From the IMG/VR virus record IMGVR_UViG_2690316105_000015, positions 1-9,920 of that record: 9,920 bases of DNA; one strand, 5' to 3'. This document shows positions 1 to 9,920 of this stretch, piece by piece. The translations under genes were made by a program, and so were the position numbers. The notes under the pieces were generated by a model. It did not search any database and was not told the origin of the DNA. It saw only the letters and a program-made list of their open reading frames with translations. The stretch's first letter is position 1. Each line of letters opens with the position of its first letter. Origin of the DNA: a virus (taxonomy: Duplodnaviria > Heunggongvirae > Uroviricota > Caudoviricetes).

Positions 1-3000
1 CGCCTGCTGGTTCAGATACAGCGTAACGGTGGCTGGGTGACGGAAAAAGACATCACCATTAAGGGCAAAACCACCTCGCAGTATCTGGCCTCGGTGGTGG
101 TGGATAACCTGCCGCCGCGCCCGTTTAATATCCGGATGCGCAGAATGACGCCGGACAGCACCACAGACCAGCTGCAGAACAAAACGCTCTGGTCGTCATA
201 CACCGAAATCATCGATGTGAAACAGTGCTACCCGAACACGGCACTGGTCGGCGTACAGGTGGATTCGGAGCAGTTCGGCAGCCAGCAGGTGAGCCGTAAT
301 TATCATCTTCGCGGGCGCATTCTGCAGGTGCCGTCGAACTATAATCCGCAGACGCGGCAATACAGCGGTATCTGGGACGGAACGTTAAAACCGGCATACA
401 GCAACAACATGGCCTGGTGTCTGTGGGATATGCTGACCCATCCGCGCTATGGCATGGGGAAACGTCTTGGTGCGGCAGATGTGGATAAATGGGCGCTGTA
501 TGTCATCGGCCAGTACTGTGACCAGTCGGTGCCGGACGGCTTTGGCAGCACGGAGCCGCGCATCACCTGTAATGCCTGGCTGACCACACAGCGCAAGGCG
601 TGGGATGTGCTCAGTGATTTCTGCTCGGCGATGCGCTGTATGCCGGTATGGAACGGGCAGACGCTGACGTTCGTGCAGGACCGACCATCGGATAAGGTGT
701 GGACCTATAACCGCAGTAATGTGGTGATGCCGGATGATGGCGCGCCGTTCCGCTACAGTTTCAGCGCCCTGAAAGACCGCCATAATGCCGTTGAGGTGAA
801 CTGGATTGACCCGGATAACGGCTGGGAGACGGCGACAGAGCTTGTGGAGGATACGCAGGCCATTGTCCGTTACGGTCGTAACGTCACGAAGATGGATGCC
901 TTTGGCTGTACCAGCCGGGGGCAGGCACACCGCGCCGGGCTGTGGCTGATTAAAACGGAACTGCTGGAGACGCAGACCGTGGATTTCAGCGTGGGTGCTG
1001 AAGGGCTTCGTCATGTACCGGGCGATGTCATTGAAATCTGCGATGATGACTATGCCGGTATCCGCACCGGCGGGCGCGTGCTGGCGGTGAACAGCCAGAC
1101 CCGGACGCTGACGCTTGACCGTGAAATCACGCTGCCATCCTCCGGCACCACGCTGATAAGCCTGGTTGACGGGCAGGGGAATCCGGTCAGCGTGGAGGTC
1201 CAGTCCGTCACCGACGGCGTGAAGGTAAAAGTGAGCCGTGTTCCTGACGGTGTTGCTGAATACAGCGTGTGGGGGCTGAAGCTGCCGACGCTGCACCAGC
1301 GATTGTTCCGCTGCGTGAGTATCCGTGAGAACGACGACGGCACGTATGCCATCACCGCCGTGCAGCATGTGCCGGAAAAAGAAGCCATCGTGGATAACGG
1401 GGCGCACTTTGACGGCGACCAGAGCGGCACGGTGAATGGTGTCACGCCGCCAGCGGTGCAGCACCTGACTGCCGAAGTCACCGCAGACAGCGGGGAATAT
1501 CAGGTGCTGGCGCGCTGGGACACGCCGAAGGTGGTGAAGGGCGTGAGCTTCCTGCTCCGTCTGACCGTAACAGCGGATGACGGCAGTGAGCGGCTGGTCA
1601 GCACGGCCCGGACGACGGAAACCACTTACCGCTTCACACAACTGGCGCTGGGGAACTACAGGCTGACAGTCCGGGCAGTAAATGCGTGGGGGCAGCAGGG
1701 CGATCCGGCGTCGGTATCGTTCCGGATTGCCGCACCGGCAGCGCTGTCGCGGATTGAGCTGACGCCGGGCTATTTTCAGATAACCGCCACGCCGCATCTT
1801 GCGGTTTATGATCCGACGGTACAGTTTGAGTTCTGGTTCTCGGAAAAGCGGATTGCGGATATCAGGCAGGTTGAAACCACAGCACGCTATCTTGGCACGG
1901 CGCTGTACTGGATAGCCGCCAGTATCAATATCAAACCGGGCCATGATTATTACTTTTATATCCGCAGTGTGAACACCGTTGGCAAATCGGCATTCGTGGA
2001 GGCTGTTGGTCAGCCGAGTGATGATGCATCCGGTTATCTGGATTTTTTCAAAGGCGAGATAGGGAAAACCCATCTGGCTCAGGAGCTGTGGACGCAGATT
2101 GATAACGGTCAGCTTGCGCCTGACCTGGCTGAAATCAGGACGTCCATTACGGATGTCAGCAATGAAATCACGCAGACCGTCAATAAGAAACTGGAAGACC
2201 AGAGTGCGGCAATTCAGCAGATACAGAAGGTTCAGGTTGATACAAATAATAACCTGAACAGCATGTGGGCTGTGAAGCTGCAGCAGATGCAGGACGGACG
2301 CCTTTATATCGCGGGTATTGGTGCCGGTATTGAGAACACCCCTGACGGCATGCAGAGTCAGGTGCTGCTGGCGGCGGACAGGATTGCGATGGTTAATCCT
2401 GCGAATGGCAACACAAAACCGATGTTTGTTGGTCAGGGCGATCAGATATTCATGAACGACGTGTTCCTGAAACGCCTGACGGCCCCCACCATTACCAGCG
2501 GTGGAAATCCATCGGCATTTTCCCTGACTCCGGACGGAAAGCTGACCGCTAAAAATGCGGATATCAGTGGCAGTGTGAATGCGAACGCCGGGACGCTCAA
2601 CAATGTCACGGTAAATGAAAACTGTACGATTAAGGGCATGCTGGAGGCGACTCAGGTCAGAGGTGACTTCGTTAAAGCTGTATCCAAATCATTTCCGAAA
2701 CAGGCTGGTACGTGGGGTAACACGGAAACACCAAACGGGACGGTTACAGTCACCATAAGCGATGATCATAACTTTGACCGCCAGATTATTATTCCGCCCA
2801 TTATTTTTAACGGTATAGCGTATGACGATCCGGGGAGCGGAAATAACCCAGGAGGCACGCGATACACGGGTTATGGTTTTGAAGTTCGCAAAAACGGCGT
2901 ATTAATCGCATCCAGAGAAACTAAAGGTGCCATTCCCGGTAGTTACAGTGCAGTTATTGATATGCCTAGTGGTGGTGGTAGCGTCACTCTGGAGTTTAAG

Positions 3001-3093
3001 ATTTTCCAGAAAGGCAATCAGGGGGCAGGCAATATCACCGACTGTACGGTGATTGTGACCAAAAAAGCGGCTTCCGGCATCAGTATTCGTTGA
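1..3093 (+). CDS. J: Host specificity protein J (central tail fibre / tip attachment protein), 5'-partial; the reading frame is open from base 1, so the gene starts upstream of the window
   Basis: Frame 1 is open from position 1 to TGA at 3091-3093 (the ORF track lists the first in-frame Met at 37). The translation reads like lambda gpJ over most of its length as I remember it (e.g. [63 protein letters not shown], fibronectin-III-like segment around [22 protein letters not shown]). Gene order J-lom-stf-tfa matches lambda. Confidence 0.93.
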
Positions 3094-3115
3094 AATATTT
3101 ATAACCCCAATAAAT

Positions 3116-3139
3116 GGCGTCAGGAATGACGCCTTTTTT
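3116..3139 (+). terminator. Intrinsic (rho-independent) terminator downstream of J
   Basis: Perfect 7-bp GC-rich stem GGCGTCA (3116-3122) / TGACGCC (3127-3133), 4-nt loop GGAA, followed by T6 (3134-3139); lies 23 nt after the J stop codon. Confidence 0.8.
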
Positions 3140-3163
3140 ATTGCAGAAAAGCGAGAGGTAATT

Positions 3164-3763
3164 ATGCGTAAAGTTTGTGCAGCCATTTTGTCCGCAGCCA
3201 TTTGCCTGGCCGTATCCGGTGCGCCTGCATGGGCGTCTGAACATCAGTCCACGCTGAGCGCGGGGTATCTTCATGCCCGGACCAACGTTCCCGGCAGTGA
3301 TGATCTGAACGGGATTAACGTGAAATACCGTTATGAGTTTACGGACACACTGGGGCTGGTGACGTCATTCAGCTATGCAGGAGACAAGAATCGCCAGCTG
3401 ACCCGTTACAGCGATACCCGCTGGCATGAAGATTCCGTTCGTAACCGCTGGTTCAGCGTAATGGCGGGGCCGTCTGTGCGCGTGAATGAATGGTTCAGCG
3501 CGTATGCGATGGTGGGTGTGGCTTACAGCCGTGTGTCGACTTTCTCCGGGGATTATCTCCGCGTAACTGACAATAAGGGGAAAACGCACGATGTGCTGAC
3601 CGGAAGTGATGACGGTCGCCACAGCAACACGTCTCTGGCGTGGGGAGCTGGCGTGCAGTTTAACCCGACCGAATCCGTGGCCATTGATGTCGCTTATGAA
3701 GGCTCCGGCAGTGGTGACTGGCGCACTGACGGGTTCATCGTGGGTGTTGGTTATAAATTCTGA
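3164..3763 (+). CDS. lom: Outer membrane protein Lom (Ail/Lom family beta-barrel; prophage moron)
   Basis: 199-aa ORF with ATG at 3164 preceded by GAGAGG (3153-3158). N-terminal signal peptide MRKVCAAILSAAICLAVSGAPAWA. The protein reads as near-identical to lambda Lom as I recall it and ends in the typical outer-membrane beta-barrel C-terminus ...GFIVGVGYKF. Confidence 0.95.
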   Translation: MRKVCAAILSAAICLAVSGAPAWASEHQSTLSAGYLHARTNVPGSDDLNGINVKYRYEFTDTLGLVTSFSYAGDKNRQLTRYSDTRWHEDSVRNRWFSVMAGPSVRVNEWFSAYAMVGVAYSRVSTFSGDYLRVTDNKGKTHDVLTGSDDGRHSNTSLAWGAGVQFNPTESVAIDVAYEGSGSGDWRTDGFIVGVGYKF

Positions 3764-3789
3764 TTAGCCAGGTAACACAGTGTTATGAC

Positions 3790-3816
3790 AGCCCGCCGGT
3801 TCAGGCGGGCTTTTTT
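3790..3816 (+). terminator. Intrinsic terminator downstream of lom
   Basis: Stem AGCCCGCC (3790-3797) / GGCGGGCT (3804-3811), 6-nt loop GGTTCA, followed by a T run (3811-3816); lies between the lom stop and the stf start. Confidence 0.85.
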
Positions 3817-3827
3817 GTGGGGTGAAT

Positions 3828-6800
3828 ATGGCAGTAAAAATTTCAGGTGTACTGAAAGACGGCACAGGAAAACCGGTACAGAACTGCACAATCCAGCTGA
3901 AAGCAAAACGTAACAGCACCACGGTGGTGGTGAACACGCTGGCCTCAGAAAATCCGGATGAAGCCGGGCGTTACAGCATGGACGTTGAGTACGGTCAGTA
4001 CAGCGTTATTCTGTTGGTGGANNNNNNNNNNNNNATTTCAGGTGTACTGAAAGACGGCACAGGAAAACCGGTACAGAACTGCACAATCCAGCTGAAAGCA
4101 AAACGTAACAGTACCACGGTGGTGGTGAACACGCTGGCATCTGAAAATCCGGATGAAGCCGGGCGTTACAGTATGGACGTTGAGTACGGTCAGTACAGCG
4201 TTATTCTGTTGGTGGAAGGATTCCCGCCGTCACATGCCGGGACCATCACAGTGTATGAAGATTCCCGACCCGGTACGCTGAATGATTTTCTCGGTGCCAT
4301 GACGGAGGATGATGCCCGTCCGGAGGCACTGCGCCGTTTTGAGCTGATGGTGGAAGAGGTGGCGCGTAACGCGTCCGTGGTGGCACAGAACACGGCAGCC
4401 GCGAAGAAGTCAGCCAGTGATGCCAGCACATCAGCCCGTGAGGCGGCAACCCATGCGACTGATGCTGCAGGCTCAGCACGCGCAGCCAGCACGTCAGCCG
4501 GACAGGCCGCGTCGTCGGCTCAGTCAGCGACTTCCAGCGCAGGAACGGCATCAACAAAGGCCACTGAAGCATCAAAAAGTGCTGCCGCTGCAGAGTCCTC
4601 AAAAAGCGCGGCAGCTACCAGTGCCAGTGCCGCGAAAACGTCAGAAACGAATGCGGCAGCGTCACAACAATCAGCAGCCACTTCTGCATCCACCGCGACT
4701 ACGAAAGCGTCAGAAGCTGCCACCTCAGCCCGGGATGCGGCGGCTTCAAAAGAGGCGGCAAAATCATCAGAAACGAACGCATCCTCGAGCGCCAGTAGCG
4801 CAGCTTCCTCGGCAACAGCGGCAGGAAATTCCGCGAAGGCGGCAAAAACGTCAGAGACGAACGCCAGGTCTTCTGAAACGGCAGCGGGACAGAGCGCCTC
4901 GGCTGCGGCAGGCTCAAAAACAGCGGCTGCGTCGTCTGCCAGTGCAGCGTCAACAAGTGCCGGGCAGGCCTCAGCCAGTGCCACCGCCGCCGGAAAATCG
5001 GCAGAAAGCGCCGCATCGTCTGCTTCAACAGCCACAACGAAGGCTGGCGAAGCCACTGAACAGGCCAGCGCAGCAGCGAGGTCTGCTTCCGCAGCGAAGA
5101 CATCCGAAACGAACGCGAAAGCGTCGGAAACCAGCGCAGAATCCTCAAAAACGGCTGCCGCATCGTCCGCCAGTTCGGCGGCGTCATCGGCATCATCTGC
5201 GTCTGCTTCAAAAGATGAGGCGACCAGACAAGCGTCAGCAGCGAAGAGCAGCGCCACGACGGCATCCACGAAGGCGACAGAGGCAGCTGGCAGTGCGACG
5301 GCGGCAGCTCAGAGCAAAAGTACGGCGGAATCCGCGGCAACGCGCGCCGAGACAGCAGCTAAACGGGCAGAGGATATTGCATCCGCCGTGGCGCTTGAGG
5401 ATGCAAGTACGACGAAAAAGGGGATAGTACAGCTCAGCAGTGCGACCAACAGCACATCTGAAACGCTTGCCGCGACACCGAAGGCAGTTAAAGCAGCGAA
5501 TGACAATGCGAATGGCAGGGTACCATCTAACCGAAAAGTTAACGGGAAAGCACTGACTGCGGATATAACATTAACACCGAAAGATATTGGCACTTTAAAT
5601 TCAGTAACGATCTCTTTCTCTGGCGGGGCAGGGTGGTTCAAACTGGCAACGGTTACCATGCCACAAGCGAGTTCCATCGTTTACATCGCATTGATTGGTG
5701 GCGCTGGTTACAACGTCGGCTCCCCACATCAGGCAGGCATTTCAGAACTGGTTCTACGAGCAGGCAATGGAAACCCCAAAGGGATTACCGGAGCTTTGTG
5801 GAAGCGTACAGCCGTCGGATTAACGAATTTCGCCTGGATCAACACATCCGGCGATACATATGATATTTACGTTGAGATTGGCAATTATGCGACGAGTGTA
5901 AATATCCATTGGGATTGTACTACAAATGCGTCAGTTTCTATTTATACCTCGCCAACATATTCAGCGAGTAAGCCTTCCAGCGTTACCGGTGGTGTTGTTT
6001 ATACGATGTATAGCTCACATCAGAAACCTACACCATCAGATATTGGAGCGCTGCCAACGACTGGAGGGACTATTTCAGGTCCGTTGTCTGTTACTGATGG
6101 GATCACCGGGGCACTGAAGGGGAACGCCGATACCGCGACGAAACTTGCGGCAGCCCCAAAAATTAACGGTGTTAAGTTTGATGGCTCGGCGGATATTAAC
6201 CTCACGCCGGAAAATATTGGTGCATTTGCCCGACGTTCGACGGGGGCTTATGCGGATTCGGATGGAGCCGTTCCCTGGAATGCCGAATCAGGCGCTTACA
6301 ATGTCACCCGCTCTGGCAACAGCTATATTCTGGTTAACTTCTATACCGGAGTCGGAAGTTGCCGGACCTTGCAGATGAAGGCACATTACAGAAATGGAGG
6401 TCTGTTCTACCGTTCCTCAAGAGATGGCTATGGTTTTGAGGAAGACTGGGCAGAAGTTTATACCTCGAAAAATCTTCCACCAGAAAGCTACCCAGTCGGC
6501 GCACCAATCCCGTGGCCATCAGATACCGTTCCGTCTGGTTATGCCCTGATGCAGGGGCAGACTTTTGACAAATCTGCTTACCCGAAACTTGCAGCCGCTT
6601 ATCCGTCAGGTGTGATCCCTGATATGCGTGGCTGGACGATTAAGGGCAAACCTGCCAGTGGTCGGGCCGTATTGTCTCAGGAACAGGACGGCATTAAATC
6701 GCACACCCACAGCGCCAGCGTATCCAGTACGGATTTGGGGACGAAAAACACATCGTCGTTTGATTACGGAACCAAATCCACGAATAACACCGGGGCGCAT

Positions 6801-7181
6801 ACCCATAGTATTAGCGGGACTGCAAATAGTGCCGGTGCGCACCAACACAAGAGTTCCGGTGCATTTGGTGGCACGAACACGAGCATTTTCCCTAATGGTT
6901 ATACCGCGATTTCAAATCTAAGCGCGGGGATTATGAGCACAACAAGCGGTAGTGGCCAGACTCGTAATGCAGGGAAGACATCATCAGATGGTGCTCATAC
7001 CCACTCGCTGTCCGGCACTGCTGCAAGCGCAGGCGCACATGCACATACTGTCGGTATTGGTGCTCATACGCACTCCGTTGCGATTGGCTCACATGGACAC
7101 ACCATCACCGTTAACGCTGCTGGTAACGCGGAAAACACCGTCAAAAACATCGCATTTAACTATATTGTGAGGCTTGCATAA
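3828..7181 (+). CDS. stf: Side tail fibre protein Stf; the reading frame passes through a 13-N gap (4022-4034) and a duplicated 182-bp segment, so the true length is probably 65 codons shorter
   Basis: ATG at 3828 (the ORF track starts at an upstream GTG, 3822), stop TAA 7179-7181. Conserved N-terminus [26 protein letters not shown], long Ala/Ser/Thr-rich fibrous repeat region, and a C-terminus ...[22 protein letters not shown] that matches lambda Stf from memory. His-x-His repeats near the C-terminus. Confidence 0.88.
3840..4216 (+). repeat. Direct tandem duplication of 182 bp (copy 1 3840-4021, copy 2 4035-4216) separated by a 13-N assembly gap (4022-4034)
   Basis: The two copies align base-for-base at an offset of 195 nt, with 4 differences (3917 C/T, 3944 C/A, 3947 A/T, 3977 C/T). 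All four fall on third codon positions and are synonymous in the stf frame. Confidence 0.9.
4370..5420 (+). repeat. Low-complexity Ala/Ser/Thr-rich coding repeat region inside stf, with a recurring K-T/S-S-E-T-N-A unit
   Basis: Repeated nucleotide units such as gcgaaaacgtcagaaacgaatgcg (about 4625), gcaaaatcatcagaaacgaacgca (about 4757), gcaaaaacgtcagagacgaacgcc (about 4845) and gcgaagacatccgaaacgaacgcg (about 5094). This region also generates long spurious ORFs in other frames on both strands. Confidence 0.8.
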
Positions 7182-7765
7182 TGGTATTCAGAATGAGTGA
7201 ACAACCACGGACCATAACAATTTATAATCTGCTGGCCGGAACTAATGAATTTATTGGTGAAGGTGATGCATATATTCCGCCTCATACAGGTCTGCCAGCA
7301 AACAGTACCGATATTGCACCGCCAGATATTCCGGCAGGCTTCGTGGCTGTTTTCAACAGTGATGAGGCATCGTGGCATCTCGTTGAAGATCATCGGGGTA
7401 AAACGGTTTATGACGTGGCTTCCGGCGACGCGTTATTTATTTCTGAACTCGGTCCGTTACCGGAAAATGTTACCTGGTTATCGCCGGAAGGGGAGTTTCA
7501 GAAGTGGAACGGCACAGCCTGGGTGAAGGATACGGAAGCAGAAAAACTGTTCCGGATCCGGGAGGCGGAAGAAACAAAAAACAACCTGATGCAGGTAGCC
7601 AGTGAGCATATTGCGCCGCTTCAGGATGCTGCAGATCTGGAAATCGCAACGGAGGAAGAAACCTCGTTGCTTGAAGCCTGGAAGAAGTATCGAGTGTTGC
7701 TGAATCGTGTTGATACATCAACTGCACCTGATATTGAGTGGCCTACAGTACCTGTTATGGAATAA
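7181..7765 (+). CDS. tfa: Tail fibre assembly protein Tfa (chaperone for Stf)
   Basis: ATG at 7181 overlaps the stf stop by 1 nt (taATGg), indicating translational coupling. The 194-aa product [54 protein letters not shown]... reads like lambda Tfa as I remember it. Stop TAA at 7763-7765. Confidence 0.95.
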
Positions 7766-7822
7766 TCGTTACTGCTGTAGCCATAATAACGTCATATACA
7801 AGAGCTTGCTGGACTACGAAGA

Positions 7823-8030
7823 ATGCGCGCTGATTTTGAAGATAAAATCAGTGGTACAAAGTCCGAAAGGCCTGGGCTGAAAAAACTACTCAGAATATTA
7901 TCGGCAGGTGACACACTGATTGTCTGAAAGCTGGACTGACTGGGGGCGTTTTTTCTTCCATGTTATGGGGCTCAGGCCGAAATGGAACGTGGACTGACTG
8001 TTAAGAGAACAATAGTCGGGTTTTGAGGCT
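7823..8030 (+). pseudogene. Remnant of a Pin/Gin/Hin-family serine DNA invertase: truncated, with in-frame stops, an internal deletion and a frameshift
   Basis: Translation from 7823 gives MRADFEDKISGTKSERPGLKKLLRILSAGDTLIV*KLD*LG, matching the conserved invertase core ...FEDKxSGTxxDRPGLKxxLxxLxxGDTLVVWKLDRLG. The expected Trp and Arg codons are TGA here (7925-7927 and 7937-7939). A further fragment RFFFHVMG / AQAEMERGLTVKRTIVGF follows in shifted frames and corresponds to RFFFHVMGALAEMERELIIERT. The N-terminal catalytic-serine segment and the C-terminal HTH domain are absent. Confidence 0.7.
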
Positions 8031-8153
8031 GCGAGATTACATAGAGTTAATTGGTTGGTTAATAGGGTATAGAGGTTATCCAACTATTCGTTACGACATA
8101 TATTGTTGTTACCTACAAGTTATGAAAAATATATGATTTTATTAATCTTTTGT

Positions 8154-8192
8154 ATGTGCAGATTAATACTTAATACGCATCAATCTGCACAT
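8154..8192. terminator. Perfect 11-bp inverted repeat (hairpin) between the convergent prophage genes and the RT-TIR gene; possible bidirectional terminator
   Basis: ATGTGCAGATT (8154-8164) and its exact reverse complement AATCTGCACAT (8182-8192), 17-nt loop. Followed on the + strand by the T-rich TTGCTTTTG, and lies 18 nt downstream of the RT-TIR stop codon on the - strand. The loop is long for a classical intrinsic terminator. Confidence 0.35.
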
Positions 8193-8209
8193 TTGCTTTT
8201 GTGAGAGAA

Positions 8210-9844
8210 TTATCGTTGTAAGAGTGATTTAATATTGTTGGCGACTACTTCAGGATTATTATCATAGACCATATAAAGCTTATCACTAAGTAAAGGTAAT
8301 GATAGGTTTACGACCTCCTCGTCTTCTTTTTTTAATAAGGTCAAAAGTTTTACGTCGCCACTCGATATTTCGCTGGCTAAAACTGCTCTTAATTCTTTTT
8401 GAGGCCATTCCTTATTGACTGAATTAGCAGATAAAATAGCGATGACATATTTTGATTTAACTAGTGCTGCATTTATTTTCTCAATTAAGGAGTCGCCCCA
8501 TTTTATCTCAACATGATCTATGAAGGCTGAAATTTTAAGTTTAGTTAACTCGTCATATATTGGAATTGCAATGTCTTTTTTGTCTTCGCTTGCATGGCAT
8601 ATAAAAACATCAAAGTTTTCTGTTTCTTTCATTGCTCGCAATCCTTCTTGGGTTTTTAATGGATCGTTATGACTCATGTATGACATCAGTTTTAAATATC
8701 CTGGATAGTCTTTCCCTCTAACCATTTTTATAAAGCTAAGCCTTCCATAAATATGATTTCGGAAAATTTGAATTGCGTGGTTATTATCCTTTGCCTGATA
8801 TCCTTTTTCTGTAGCAAAGAGAAGTGCATACTTTAGCTTATCATCTGTCCATCTATGAATCATTGAACGTGTAATTCTTATATATCTTCTGTTAATGTTA
8901 ACTTTATCATTAACCACTAAGCCAGTAACACTTTGTCTTGTATTTCTGGTTTGAACTCTAAACTTATCATAATTTATTTTAAAGCCATTTTTTGAAATAA
9001 TATTGTCTATAGTTTCACTAAGACTATAACTTCCGTCATCGTTTTTTTTGATTATATCAATATTTCTCTGATTGAAAGAAAAAGTTATGTCGTCAGCATA
9101 CCTAGAATAAGATATTTTTTTTCTTCCTGCAAATTGGGTGAGCTGTTTGTCTAGAGAAGCTGATGCAATATTTGCTAATATTGGCGATGTACACGCACCT
9201 TGAGGTAATTTTCCATTGTGAGTACATAACTGAGCTAAAACAGTAGCTGCTGGATGAGCAAAATTAAAAGGTTTACTTTTAAATATTCCATAAACCCTGG
9301 CAAAACTTATTGATTCGAAATAGTTTTCTAGGTCAATGTTTACGACAAAATTTTTTTTAATATGCATCCCAGCATTAGTAATGATGCTCTTTCCTTTTAT
9401 AAAACCATGAGCAGATTTCTTTGGCCTGTAGAAATATTCAAGAACGGGCTTTAGTCTCGTTTGGAGTATCGATAGACCGCCACAAGGAGCATTAATGACT
9501 CTTTTTTTACCATTCTTCTTTTCTATTTCAAAAGTACGATAATTATCTTTTTTACGATATAGTATATAAAGTAATTGGCCAGCAGGAACTCCAAGTAAAT
9601 TGGCAATATCACTTACTGATGTTATAGCAATTTCCCCTGACTCAATCAATATACATATTTTAATCAGGTTATCAGGGGGAGTAACTTCAGTGCTAGTAAG
9701 TGTGTGGTTTATCCATTTAATTTTATGTCCATTGCTGTATGGTTTAGGTTCAATTTGAGGAAGTTCAGATATGAAGTCAGGGCTTTTTTTATTGGCTAAT
9801 GCGAAGTTATGCATTAATAATTTATCATGTAGCGACAAAACCAA
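8210..9844 (-). CDS. Retron-type reverse transcriptase fused to a C-terminal TIR domain (RT-TIR; candidate anti-phage defence effector). The true start is probably the TTG at 9838-9836 or the ATG at 9814-9812 rather than the TTG at 9844
   Basis: 544-codon ORF in AT-rich DNA. RT motifs in the expected order: AHGF, NAGMH (NAxxH), VNIDLENYFESI, LPQGACTSPILANI, YADD (codons at 9089-9100, catalytic motif C) and QSVTGLVVNDKVN (the VTG motif typical of retron RTs). C-terminal region about aa 411-500 (about 8345-8614): FDVFICHASEDKKDIAIPIYDEL...YVIAILSANSVNKEWPQKELRAVL, a typical bacterial TIR signature including the conserved Glu (E484, codon 8393-8395). AGGAG at 9849-9845 gives a 6-nt spacing to the TTG at 9838. 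Confidence 0.88.
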   Translation of the reverse strand: MVLSLHDKLLMHNFALANKKSPDFISELPQIEPKPYSNGHKIKWINHTLTSTEVTPPDNLIKICILIESGEIAITSVSDIANLLGVPAGQLLYILYRKKDNYRTFEIEKKNGKKRVINAPCGGLSILQTRLKPVLEYFYRPKKSAHGFIKGKSIITNAGMHIKKNFVVNIDLENYFESISFARVYGIFKSKPFNFAHPAATVLAQLCTHNGKLPQGACTSPILANIASASLDKQLTQFAGRKKISYSRYADDITFSFNQRNIDIIKKNDDGSYSLSETIDNIISKNGFKINYDKFRVQTRNTRQSVTGLVVNDKVNINRRYIRITRSMIHRWTDDKLKYALLFATEKGYQAKDNNHAIQIFRNHIYGRLSFIKMVRGKDYPGYLKLMSYMSHNDPLKTQEGLRAMKETENFDVFICHASEDKKDIAIPIYDELTKLKISAFIDHVEIKWGDSLIEKINAALVKSKYVIAILSANSVNKEWPQKELRAVLASEISSGDVKLLTLLKKEDEEVVNLSLPLLSDKLYMVYDNNPEVVANNIKSLLQR

Positions 9845-9920
9845 CTCCTATCGGATTGTAGGTAATGACTCCAACTTATTGATAGTGTTTTATGTTCAGA
9901 TAATGCCCGATGACTTTGTC

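Follow-up and report, generated by a model that had tools for sequence, protein, structure and literature searches.

An AT-rich type XII retron block in the cargo slot of prfC lambdoid prophages, and the separation of its RT-TIR gene from the retron RNA gene by IS1 in one copy

Introduction

What is the strongly AT-rich DNA that begins abruptly beside a decayed invertase gene at the tail-fibre end of a lambdoid prophage, and how did it come to lie there? The question is raised by the end of a 9,920-nucleotide stretch of Caudoviricetes DNA (IMG/VR record IMGVR_UViG_2690316105_000015, positions 1 to 9,920), called the window below, in which one long gene encodes a reverse transcriptase (RT) joined to a TIR domain (RT-TIR). 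An earlier interpretation, made from the letters and open reading frames (ORFs) without database searches and referred to here as the sequence-only reading, had taken positions 8040-9920 for a horizontally acquired defence cassette that displaced the 3' part of the invertase locus at a site commonly used for moron or defence genes, and had proposed that base composition, related prophages and target-site duplications be examined.

Our analysis makes it very likely that the AT-rich DNA, present in the window as positions 8056-9860, is part of a type XII retron cargo block which was acquired by recombination in the cargo slot of a prophage at prfC, presumably acts by TIR-mediated abortive infection, and is split in this copy by the insertion sequence (IS) IS1. 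The block is one self-contained defence unit in a non-essential slot between the tail-fibre genes and a DinI-like gene with attR. The system is a known one in an ordinary location; it is named in RefSeq and is present in 83 complete Escherichia coli genomes.

Results

Identity of the RT-TIR gene

The RT-TIR gene was found to be one long ORF, open to 9844, with a match to the PADLOC model RT-TIR_XII (6.9e-188) and a score of 672.3 bits, above the cut-off of 600, against the NCBIfam equivalog NF042941.1 (Retron_TIR_antiphage), which is titled 'TIR domain-containing anti-phage reverse transcriptase'. Pfam placed RVT_1 (3e-19) at residues 107-308 (ca. 8921-9526) and, C-terminal to it in the same ORF, TIR_2 (1.2e-18) at residues 413-525 (ca. 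8270-8608). On the basis of an alignment of 23 homologues, the RT motifs Y239-A240-D241-D242, N147-A148-H151 (NAxxH) and V296-T297-G298 (VTG) were invariant, as was the glutamate in the W-P-x-x-E motif of the TIR domain. The definitions of the motifs (region X NAxxH, region Y VTG, YxDD) and of type XII, an RT fused to a C-terminal TIR_2 domain and equated with the anti-phage Retron-TIR of Gao et al., are those of Mestre et al. (PMC7736814). As cited in that article, Gao et al. 2020 found the fused domain to be needed for Retron-TIR defence, and the Retron-TIR of Shigella dysenteriae NCTC2966 conferred protection against T5 (bioRxiv 10.1101/2022.06.09.495361). Judged by its sequence, the AT-rich gene is the known Retron-TIR, or type XII retron, reverse transcriptase; its earlier description as an RT-TIR defence gene is borne out by the PADLOC, NCBIfam and Pfam matches.

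RefSeq starts the gene at ATG 9814. The true start is probably TTG 9838, since the N-terminal sequence SLHDKLLM is shared with a P4-borne homologue. The encoded protein was 100% identical to protein cluster P0001, and the ORF is intact and represents the common allele. Compensatory changes seen in Erwinia and Providencia preserve the stem of a hairpin 3' of the gene (Table 1); the hairpin is probably a transcript-end or stability element. No canonical intrinsic terminator was found 3' of RT-TIR; as the hairpin is followed by no T-run, it is not a textbook terminator.

Composition break and left junction

The sliding-window plot and codon counts gave a composition that was not uniform across the junction. 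A maximum-likelihood search for a single change point in G+C content over 1-9860 placed it after base 8035 (support interval 7992-8075, within 2 log-likelihood units), with GC of 0.539 before it and 0.324 beyond it, and the log-likelihood ratio was 140 versus a maximum of 5.9 in 200 permutations. Sliding G+C was 0.44-0.64 over J, lom, stf, tfa and the invertase remnant, falling to 0.28-0.35 beyond about 8050. Comparable local steps (300 against 300 bases) were present within the mosaic tail genes at 1770, 4291 and 5400, but a sustained GC below 0.35 was reached only after the step at 8035. Third-codon-position GC was 0.65 in J, 0.61 in lom, 0.50 in stf and 0.43 in tfa, and 0.247 in RT-TIR, where the commonest codons were AAA (8.2%), AAT (4.9%), ATT (4.9%) and ATA (4.7%). 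Both the abrupt break seen at about 8040 in the sequence-only reading and the dominance of AAA, AAT and ATT codons in RT-TIR were thus reproduced by calculation. The AT-rich cassette drawn there over 8040-9920 stood up to 9860, and positions 9861-9920 turned out to be an IS1 end.

The break falls at the pseudogene of a Pin/Gin-type serine invertase. A 34-amino-acid ORF at 7823-7927 matched Pfam Resolvase (1.4e-6), RefSeq labels 7796-8026 in identical loci as 'recombinase family protein, frameshifted', and blastn returned ca. 83% DNA identity between the remnant and pinE genes. When 7766-8209 was searched by blastn against complete E. coli genomes, with their thousands of pinE-like genes, all invertase matches stopped at query 250-255, i.e. 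window 8015-8020, and blastn with permissive scoring against L002, a longer invertase remnant in an unrelated prophage at ssrA, carried the homology to about 8055. Since both ends lie near 8035, the proposed coincidence of the compositional switch with the end of Pin-type similarity holds. Scattered similarity out to about 8100 in a MAFFT alignment was treated as forced, as blastn backs invertase homology to about 8055 only.

The remnant has no N-terminus, contains in-frame stops and a 101-bp deletion, and has lost its 3' (DNA-binding) part. Alignment with L002 showed the internal deletion, after 7942, to be the window copy's own, and the N-terminal truncation, by which tfa runs straight into invertase codon ca. 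20, to be common to both; the truncation is therefore earlier than, or independent of, the cargo. From these lesions, 7796-8055 is a remnant predicted to encode no working invertase, one already dead before the cargo, and the cargo junction appears to have taken away its 3' third. The earlier idea that the cargo displaced the 3' part of the gene fits the junction itself, where that part is missing, but not the decay as a whole: the N-terminal loss came earlier and the 101-bp deletion is separate, so the cargo is not the cause of all of it. The spacer at 8056-8147 lies outside both the invertase homology and the Erwinia and Providencia retron homology, which starts at 8148-8155. A possible gix-like half-site (TTATCCAA, at ca. 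8077) plays no part in the argument.

Limits of the block and the prophage cargo slot

Among 5,426 complete E. coli genomes, 83 had the block, in 84 records that matched 7700-9860 at an identity of at least 99% and with the same junctions, and in all of them the block lay within a lambdoid prophage at prfC. In the IS1-free locus of strain 4/1-1 (L001; window coordinate = L001 coordinate minus 1301), 360 bp of non-coding DNA separate RT-TIR from the DinI-like gene, behind which lies prfC. The right junction is sharp, at L001 11491/11492, with other prfC prophages matching from 11492 on, and lies 19 nt within the 3' end of the DinI-like gene (L001 11473-11491); prophage-free chromosomes match only from about L001 11784. 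The foreign block hence extends over ca. L001 9357-11491 (ca. 2.15 kb), of which the window (8056-9860) holds the left 1.8 kb, the right edge being situated about 1.6 kb past the window end. The C-terminus of the DinI-like protein is altered by the junction, with a length of 86 amino acids in L001 versus 82 in sibling prophages.

The same slot at prfC was occupied by cdtABC in L006, by nleG7 in L005, and in L004 (NZ_CP134370.1, 4475-6305) by a C-terminally truncated pinE gene followed by a 365-amino-acid orphan ORF with a GC of 0.31-0.36. All three share the DinI-like/attR/prfC right flank with L001. They also have in common ca. 90 bp 3' of the DinI-like gene which L001 is without; this sequence, together with the altered DinI 3' codons in L001, indicates that the retron form is the derived one. 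Pfam and PADLOC searches of the orphan cargo genes of L004 and L002 gave no matches, and the 365-amino-acid ORF is a candidate uncharacterised cargo or defence gene.

In L001 and in the circular record L100 the block is situated inside the phage genome, between the late structural genes and the attachment site, and its composition is unlike that of the phage backbone (0.32 vs 0.54). The slot between the tail-fibre genes and attP/int is presumably the counterpart of the lambda b region. L100 (NZ_CP019281.1, strain 13P484A; 33,754 bp) contains tail genes, J, lom, stf, tfa, the invertase remnant, RT-TIR, DinI and integrase. It is a poor assembly with many frameshifts, labelled as a plasmid, and the chromosome of the same strain also has the block; instead of a plasmid, the record may represent a prophage that was excised or wrongly assembled.

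The comparison with other prophages thus mapped the left junction to about 8055 and the right one to L001 11491/11492, found the gene not to be an ancestral component, and agreed with the description of the position as a usual site for moron or defence genes, the siblings holding cdtABC, nleG7 or an orphan ORF there. The search for target-site duplications had a negative outcome: the longest direct word shared by the cassette ends was 7 bp (TGGTTGG), a length reached in 367 of 2000 shuffles. As no significant direct repeat is present, recombinational replacement is favoured over transposition or insertion.

The tail-fibre genes 5' of the block vary between carriers, and the block itself is constant. 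Three carrier genomes, among them NZ_CP104848.1 (L003 4121-4789), have an extra gene for a class I S-adenosylmethionine-dependent methyltransferase and duplicated tfa fragments between stf and the invertase remnant, so the region 5' of the retron block is itself variable.

Retron RNA gene in intact copies

Directly 5' of the RT, intact loci contain an element of ca. 137 nt with terminal inverted repeats, an msr hairpin and a variable msd stem. In L001 the a1/a2 repeats are CGGCTCTGCC/GGCAGAGCCG, with the msr hairpin just upstream of the RT; across the intact loci the element was delimited by a1 CGGCUCUGCC and a2 GGCAGAGCCG and contained the conserved msr hairpin GAGGUUGUUUCGCCUC. Folding of ten loci from eight genera with RNAalifold recovered the a1/a2 helix and the msr hairpin, and 8 of the 24 consensus pairs showed compensatory double changes. 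The structured-RNA family of type XII is listed as not determined by Mestre et al. (PMC7736814).

A promoter-like sequence, TTTACT-17-TATGAT, ends 11 nt ahead of a1, and the order of the intact unit is putative promoter, msr-msd non-coding RNA, RT-TIR gene and 3' hairpin. An msr-msd contiguous with the RT is lacking in the window copy and present in L001, which is identical to it up to window 9860. The only two Rfam matches in L001 9000-12100, CRISPR-DR6 and tsr25, were both dismissed as chance.

Separation of the window copy from its RNA gene by IS1

Positions 9861-9920 matched, without a single difference, the opening 60 bases of an IS1A of 768 bp in L097 (strain F1053), and the transposase of the window IS1 is on the same strand as RT-TIR. 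The element lies 7-8 nt downstream of a2, 12 nt 5' of the GGAG sequence and 22 nt 5' of TTG 9838. The 84 IS1-free records match the window up to 9860 only, none (0/84) having IS1 at the site, and the msr and a2 motifs, when searched for in the window, were absent. The last nine bases before the IS1 end (9852-9860) are CGGATTGTA; beyond a 768-bp IS1, a second copy of CGGATTGTA would be expected, followed by AACGTTTCGGCTCTGCCC... on the a2 side of msr-msd. The end of the sequence inside IS1 is as expected of a short-read contig.

IS1 thus appears to have landed between msr-msd and the RT start, which would leave the ORF and its ribosome-binding site intact and sever the native promoter and the RNA gene. 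Because the ORF is intact and equal to the common allele, the insertion is probably recent. IS1 is classically polar on downstream genes, and for that reason the RT-TIR copy in the window is probably silenced or impaired.

Other, independent insertions were observed at the locus. The IS1A of F1053 (L097 2219-2986), whose annotation reads 'IS1-like element IS1A family transposase' and which has a 9-bp duplication on its flanks, interrupts the same RT-TIR ORF, as does ISSen4 in three strains (YJ4, M505 and M719; L099 ca. 2050-3170), and strain PI7 has IS4 in the invertase remnant (L098 1760-3106). The repeated hits may reflect either selection against the retron or IS preference for AT-rich targets.

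Relatives of the retron

The nearest retron units, with 77.5% nucleotide identity over L001 9449-11350 (window 8148 onward), came from Erwinia persicina and Providencia vermicola; the Erwinia unit belongs to a P4-like satellite, and the Providencia unit lies between gpA and the portal gene of a P2-like prophage. A variant of 69-71% identity was present in a P4-like satellite beside setC/yicL in ca. 15 E. coli genomes and also in a Salmonella P4-like satellite, and the homology of the E. coli P4-borne variant extends exactly from the RT-TIR 3' end to L001 11306. Homologues in Salmonella, Citrobacter, Yersinia and Serratia sit after a P4-type primase. Those in other genomes were located via exact-protein look-ups, of which that for P0003 gave no match. 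GC was 0.32-0.35 in all copies (Erwinia, Serratia, Edwardsiella, Citrobacter, Salmonella, Yersinia and Providencia), with flanks of 0.42-0.64; constant in spite of such varied flanks, the AT-richness is a trait of the family and no tracer of a donor. The horizontal acquisition proposed from composition is supported by these relatives in P4-like and P2-like elements of other genera, and by the sibling flanks that enclose other cargo.

A tblastn search of RT-TIR against 50,697 phage records returned only partial, RT-only matches of at most 41% identity, the gene being in no sequenced phage of that set. Patterns derived from the RT-TIR alignment were too general when scanned against GTDB, yielding distant retron RTs and no close relatives among the matches listed.

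Other features of the window

The coordinates of all features are collected in Table 1. The gene tfa is the final intact phage structural gene ahead of the break. The stf gene contains 13 consecutive N (4022-4034), and the 182 nt ahead of them (3840-4021) recur directly behind them (4035-4216) with 4 mismatches. The pattern suggests either a scaffolding artefact or the collapse of two stf N-termini, and the 1119-amino-acid stf ORF is consequently not to be trusted as written.

Table 1. Features of the 9,920-nucleotide window, with their G+C content and the grounds for annotation.
Feature	Position	Strand	GC	Evidence or remark
J	37-3093	+	0.556	5' end cut by window start
lom	3164-3763	+	0.558	Pfam Ail_Lom 1e-121
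stf	3822-7181	+	0.541	window ORF
tfa, tail fibre assembly	7181-7765	+	0.479	Pfam Caudo_TAP 2.4e-44; 'tail fiber assembly protein' in L001
Pin/Gin-type serine invertase pseudogene	7796-8055	+	0.455	Pfam, RefSeq, blastn, alignment with L002
Spacer segment used for GC	8027-8209		0.311	
Orphan AT-rich spacer	8056-8147	.	ca. 0.31	between end of invertase homology and start of conserved retron unit
Conserved hairpin	8154-8192	-		11-bp stem 8154-8164/8182-8192; 18 nt 3' of RT-TIR stop
RT-TIR gene (retron type XII RT + TIR)	8210-9838	-	0.328	PADLOC, Pfam, NCBIfam
Putative Shine-Dalgarno-like GGAG	9845-9848	-		5' of TTG 9838; aligns with GAGG ahead of L007 GTG start
IS1 end	9861-9920	-		terminal 60 bases, end downstream of transposase; 60/60 identical to L097 IS1A

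Discussion

Origin and action of the block

In all likelihood the block came by recombination, its left side taking the place of the 3' end of the already defective Pin-type invertase and its right side that of the last DinI-like codons, and then spread through E. coli along with the prophage end. Its presumed mode of action follows general knowledge of retrons and bacterial TIR effectors. The RT would copy the msd part of the RNA into multicopy single-stranded DNA (msDNA), and the complex of RT and msDNA would restrain the fused TIR domain, presumably an effector that degrades nicotinamide adenine dinucleotide (NAD+). Phage infection would disturb the complex and free the TIR domain, and the cell would be arrested or killed before phage production, i.e. 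by abortive infection.

Several points weigh against this account. For the allele in the window, msDNA synthesis, NADase activity and the trigger are predictions, and the literature search found no mechanistic study of type XII retrons, only reviews. When L001 9000-12100, an intact locus, was scanned with Rfam at E values up to 1, no retron RNA family matched, and promoter-like sites in the region were no commoner than expected by chance. The window sequence ends inside IS1, which hides the far side, including any msr-msd, and read-through from IS1 could still express RT-TIR. Finally, blastn in complete E. coli genomes brought up no retron-free copy of this exact invertase remnant, and the case for the direction of the event is therefore built on composition, the sibling flanks and the other homes of the retron.

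Alternative explanations

That missing retron-free remnant is what would be expected if the retron were old and vertically inherited in the prophage lineage, and the siblings with cdt, nleG7 or other genes had replaced it; 84 near-identical copies, alike in both junctions and in their prfC context, would fit as well. We nevertheless regard such a history as quite unlikely, given that GC drops by 0.2 exactly at the junction, that the ca. 90 bp 3' of DinI shared by L004, L005 and L006 and missing from L001 mark a derived state, that the tail-fibre genes 5' of the block differ between carriers, and that other genera harbour the nearest retron relatives, in P4-like and P2-like elements. The GC of 0.33, far under that of E. 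coli and phage genes, could also be taken to trace the block to a low-GC donor. This origin is unlikely, as the homologues in seven genera all have a GC of 0.32-0.35 between flanks of 0.42-0.64.

The prophage might instead end at the break, with the AT-rich DNA forming a chromosomal island beyond it, for there are no more phage genes before the window stops; but intact loci have the phage DinI-like gene after the retron, chromosomal homology sets in only at about L001 11784, and the circular L100 has the retron between tfa and DinI-int, which makes this very unlikely. It is extremely unlikely that IS1 brought or mobilised the cassette by composite or one-ended transposition, even though an IS1 end abuts the cassette at 9861: the 84 records have the same cassette and junctions and no IS1 at the site, the IS1 is internal to the retron unit, with the RNA gene on one side and the RT on the other, and the cassette ends show no significant direct repeat. 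Two extensions are doubtful. One is that the insertions are a recurrent inactivation by which lysogens switch off a costly Retron-TIR, or else that the IS1 split leaves an uncoupled RT-TIR expressed by IS1 read-through under altered regulation; the other is that invertase or gix-like sequences assist in the capture of cargo. Truncated invertase genes do recur as the left breakpoint of AT-rich cargo (L001 type and L004).

Implications

With acquisition of a type XII retron by recombination at the prfC slot as the preferred explanation, what is added to a known system are the exact boundaries of the block, a covariation-supported RNA gene for type XII, the comparison with sibling cargo and the IS1 split. 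One slot of the prfC lambdoid prophage serves for an anti-phage retron or for the toxins and effectors (cdt, nleG) of its siblings. One retron family moves among lambdoid, P2-like and P4-like vehicles across enterobacterial genera, keeping a GC of ca. 33%. For annotation, a copy split by IS1 should not be counted as a working defence system from its protein match alone.

Comparison with known systems

The closest counterpart is the Retron-TIR of Gao et al. 2020, type XII of Mestre et al. (PMC7736814), likewise a single polypeptide of an RT (NAxxH, YADD, VTG) and a C-terminal TIR_2 domain, with msr-msd upstream in intact copies. The window copy differs in being separated by IS1 from its RNA gene and promoter. 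In contrast to the type XII account of Mestre et al., where the structured RNA was not determined, a covarying a1/a2 helix and msr hairpin are described here.

Retron Eco2/Ec67 (type I-C, RT-Toprim) and type XI (RT-protease) also belong to RT clade 8 and carry their effector fused in a single protein, and the RT part of the window gene matches their models at 1e-105 to 1e-121. The effector of the window gene is, however, a TIR domain and not a Toprim or protease domain, and its NCBIfam retron_Ec67_fus score of 315 is under the cut-off of 450. A TIR fold with a conserved glutamate is shared with Thoeris ThsB and other TIR effectors, including a weak match to Thoeris type III ThcB4 (7.5e-7), whereas the window gene joins its TIR domain to a retron RT in one protein, and no separate ThsA-like effector gene is present.

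As to location, the cdt-I and nleG prophages at prfC have the same position and right flank as the window type, but their cargo is a virulence factor, while that of the window is anti-phage and has its left junction inside an invertase pseudogene. The P2-like and P4-like defence hotspots hold the nearest retron units, which either follow a P4-type primase or are flanked by P2 gpA and the portal gene; the window copy, in contrast, is in a lambdoid prophage and has other flanks.

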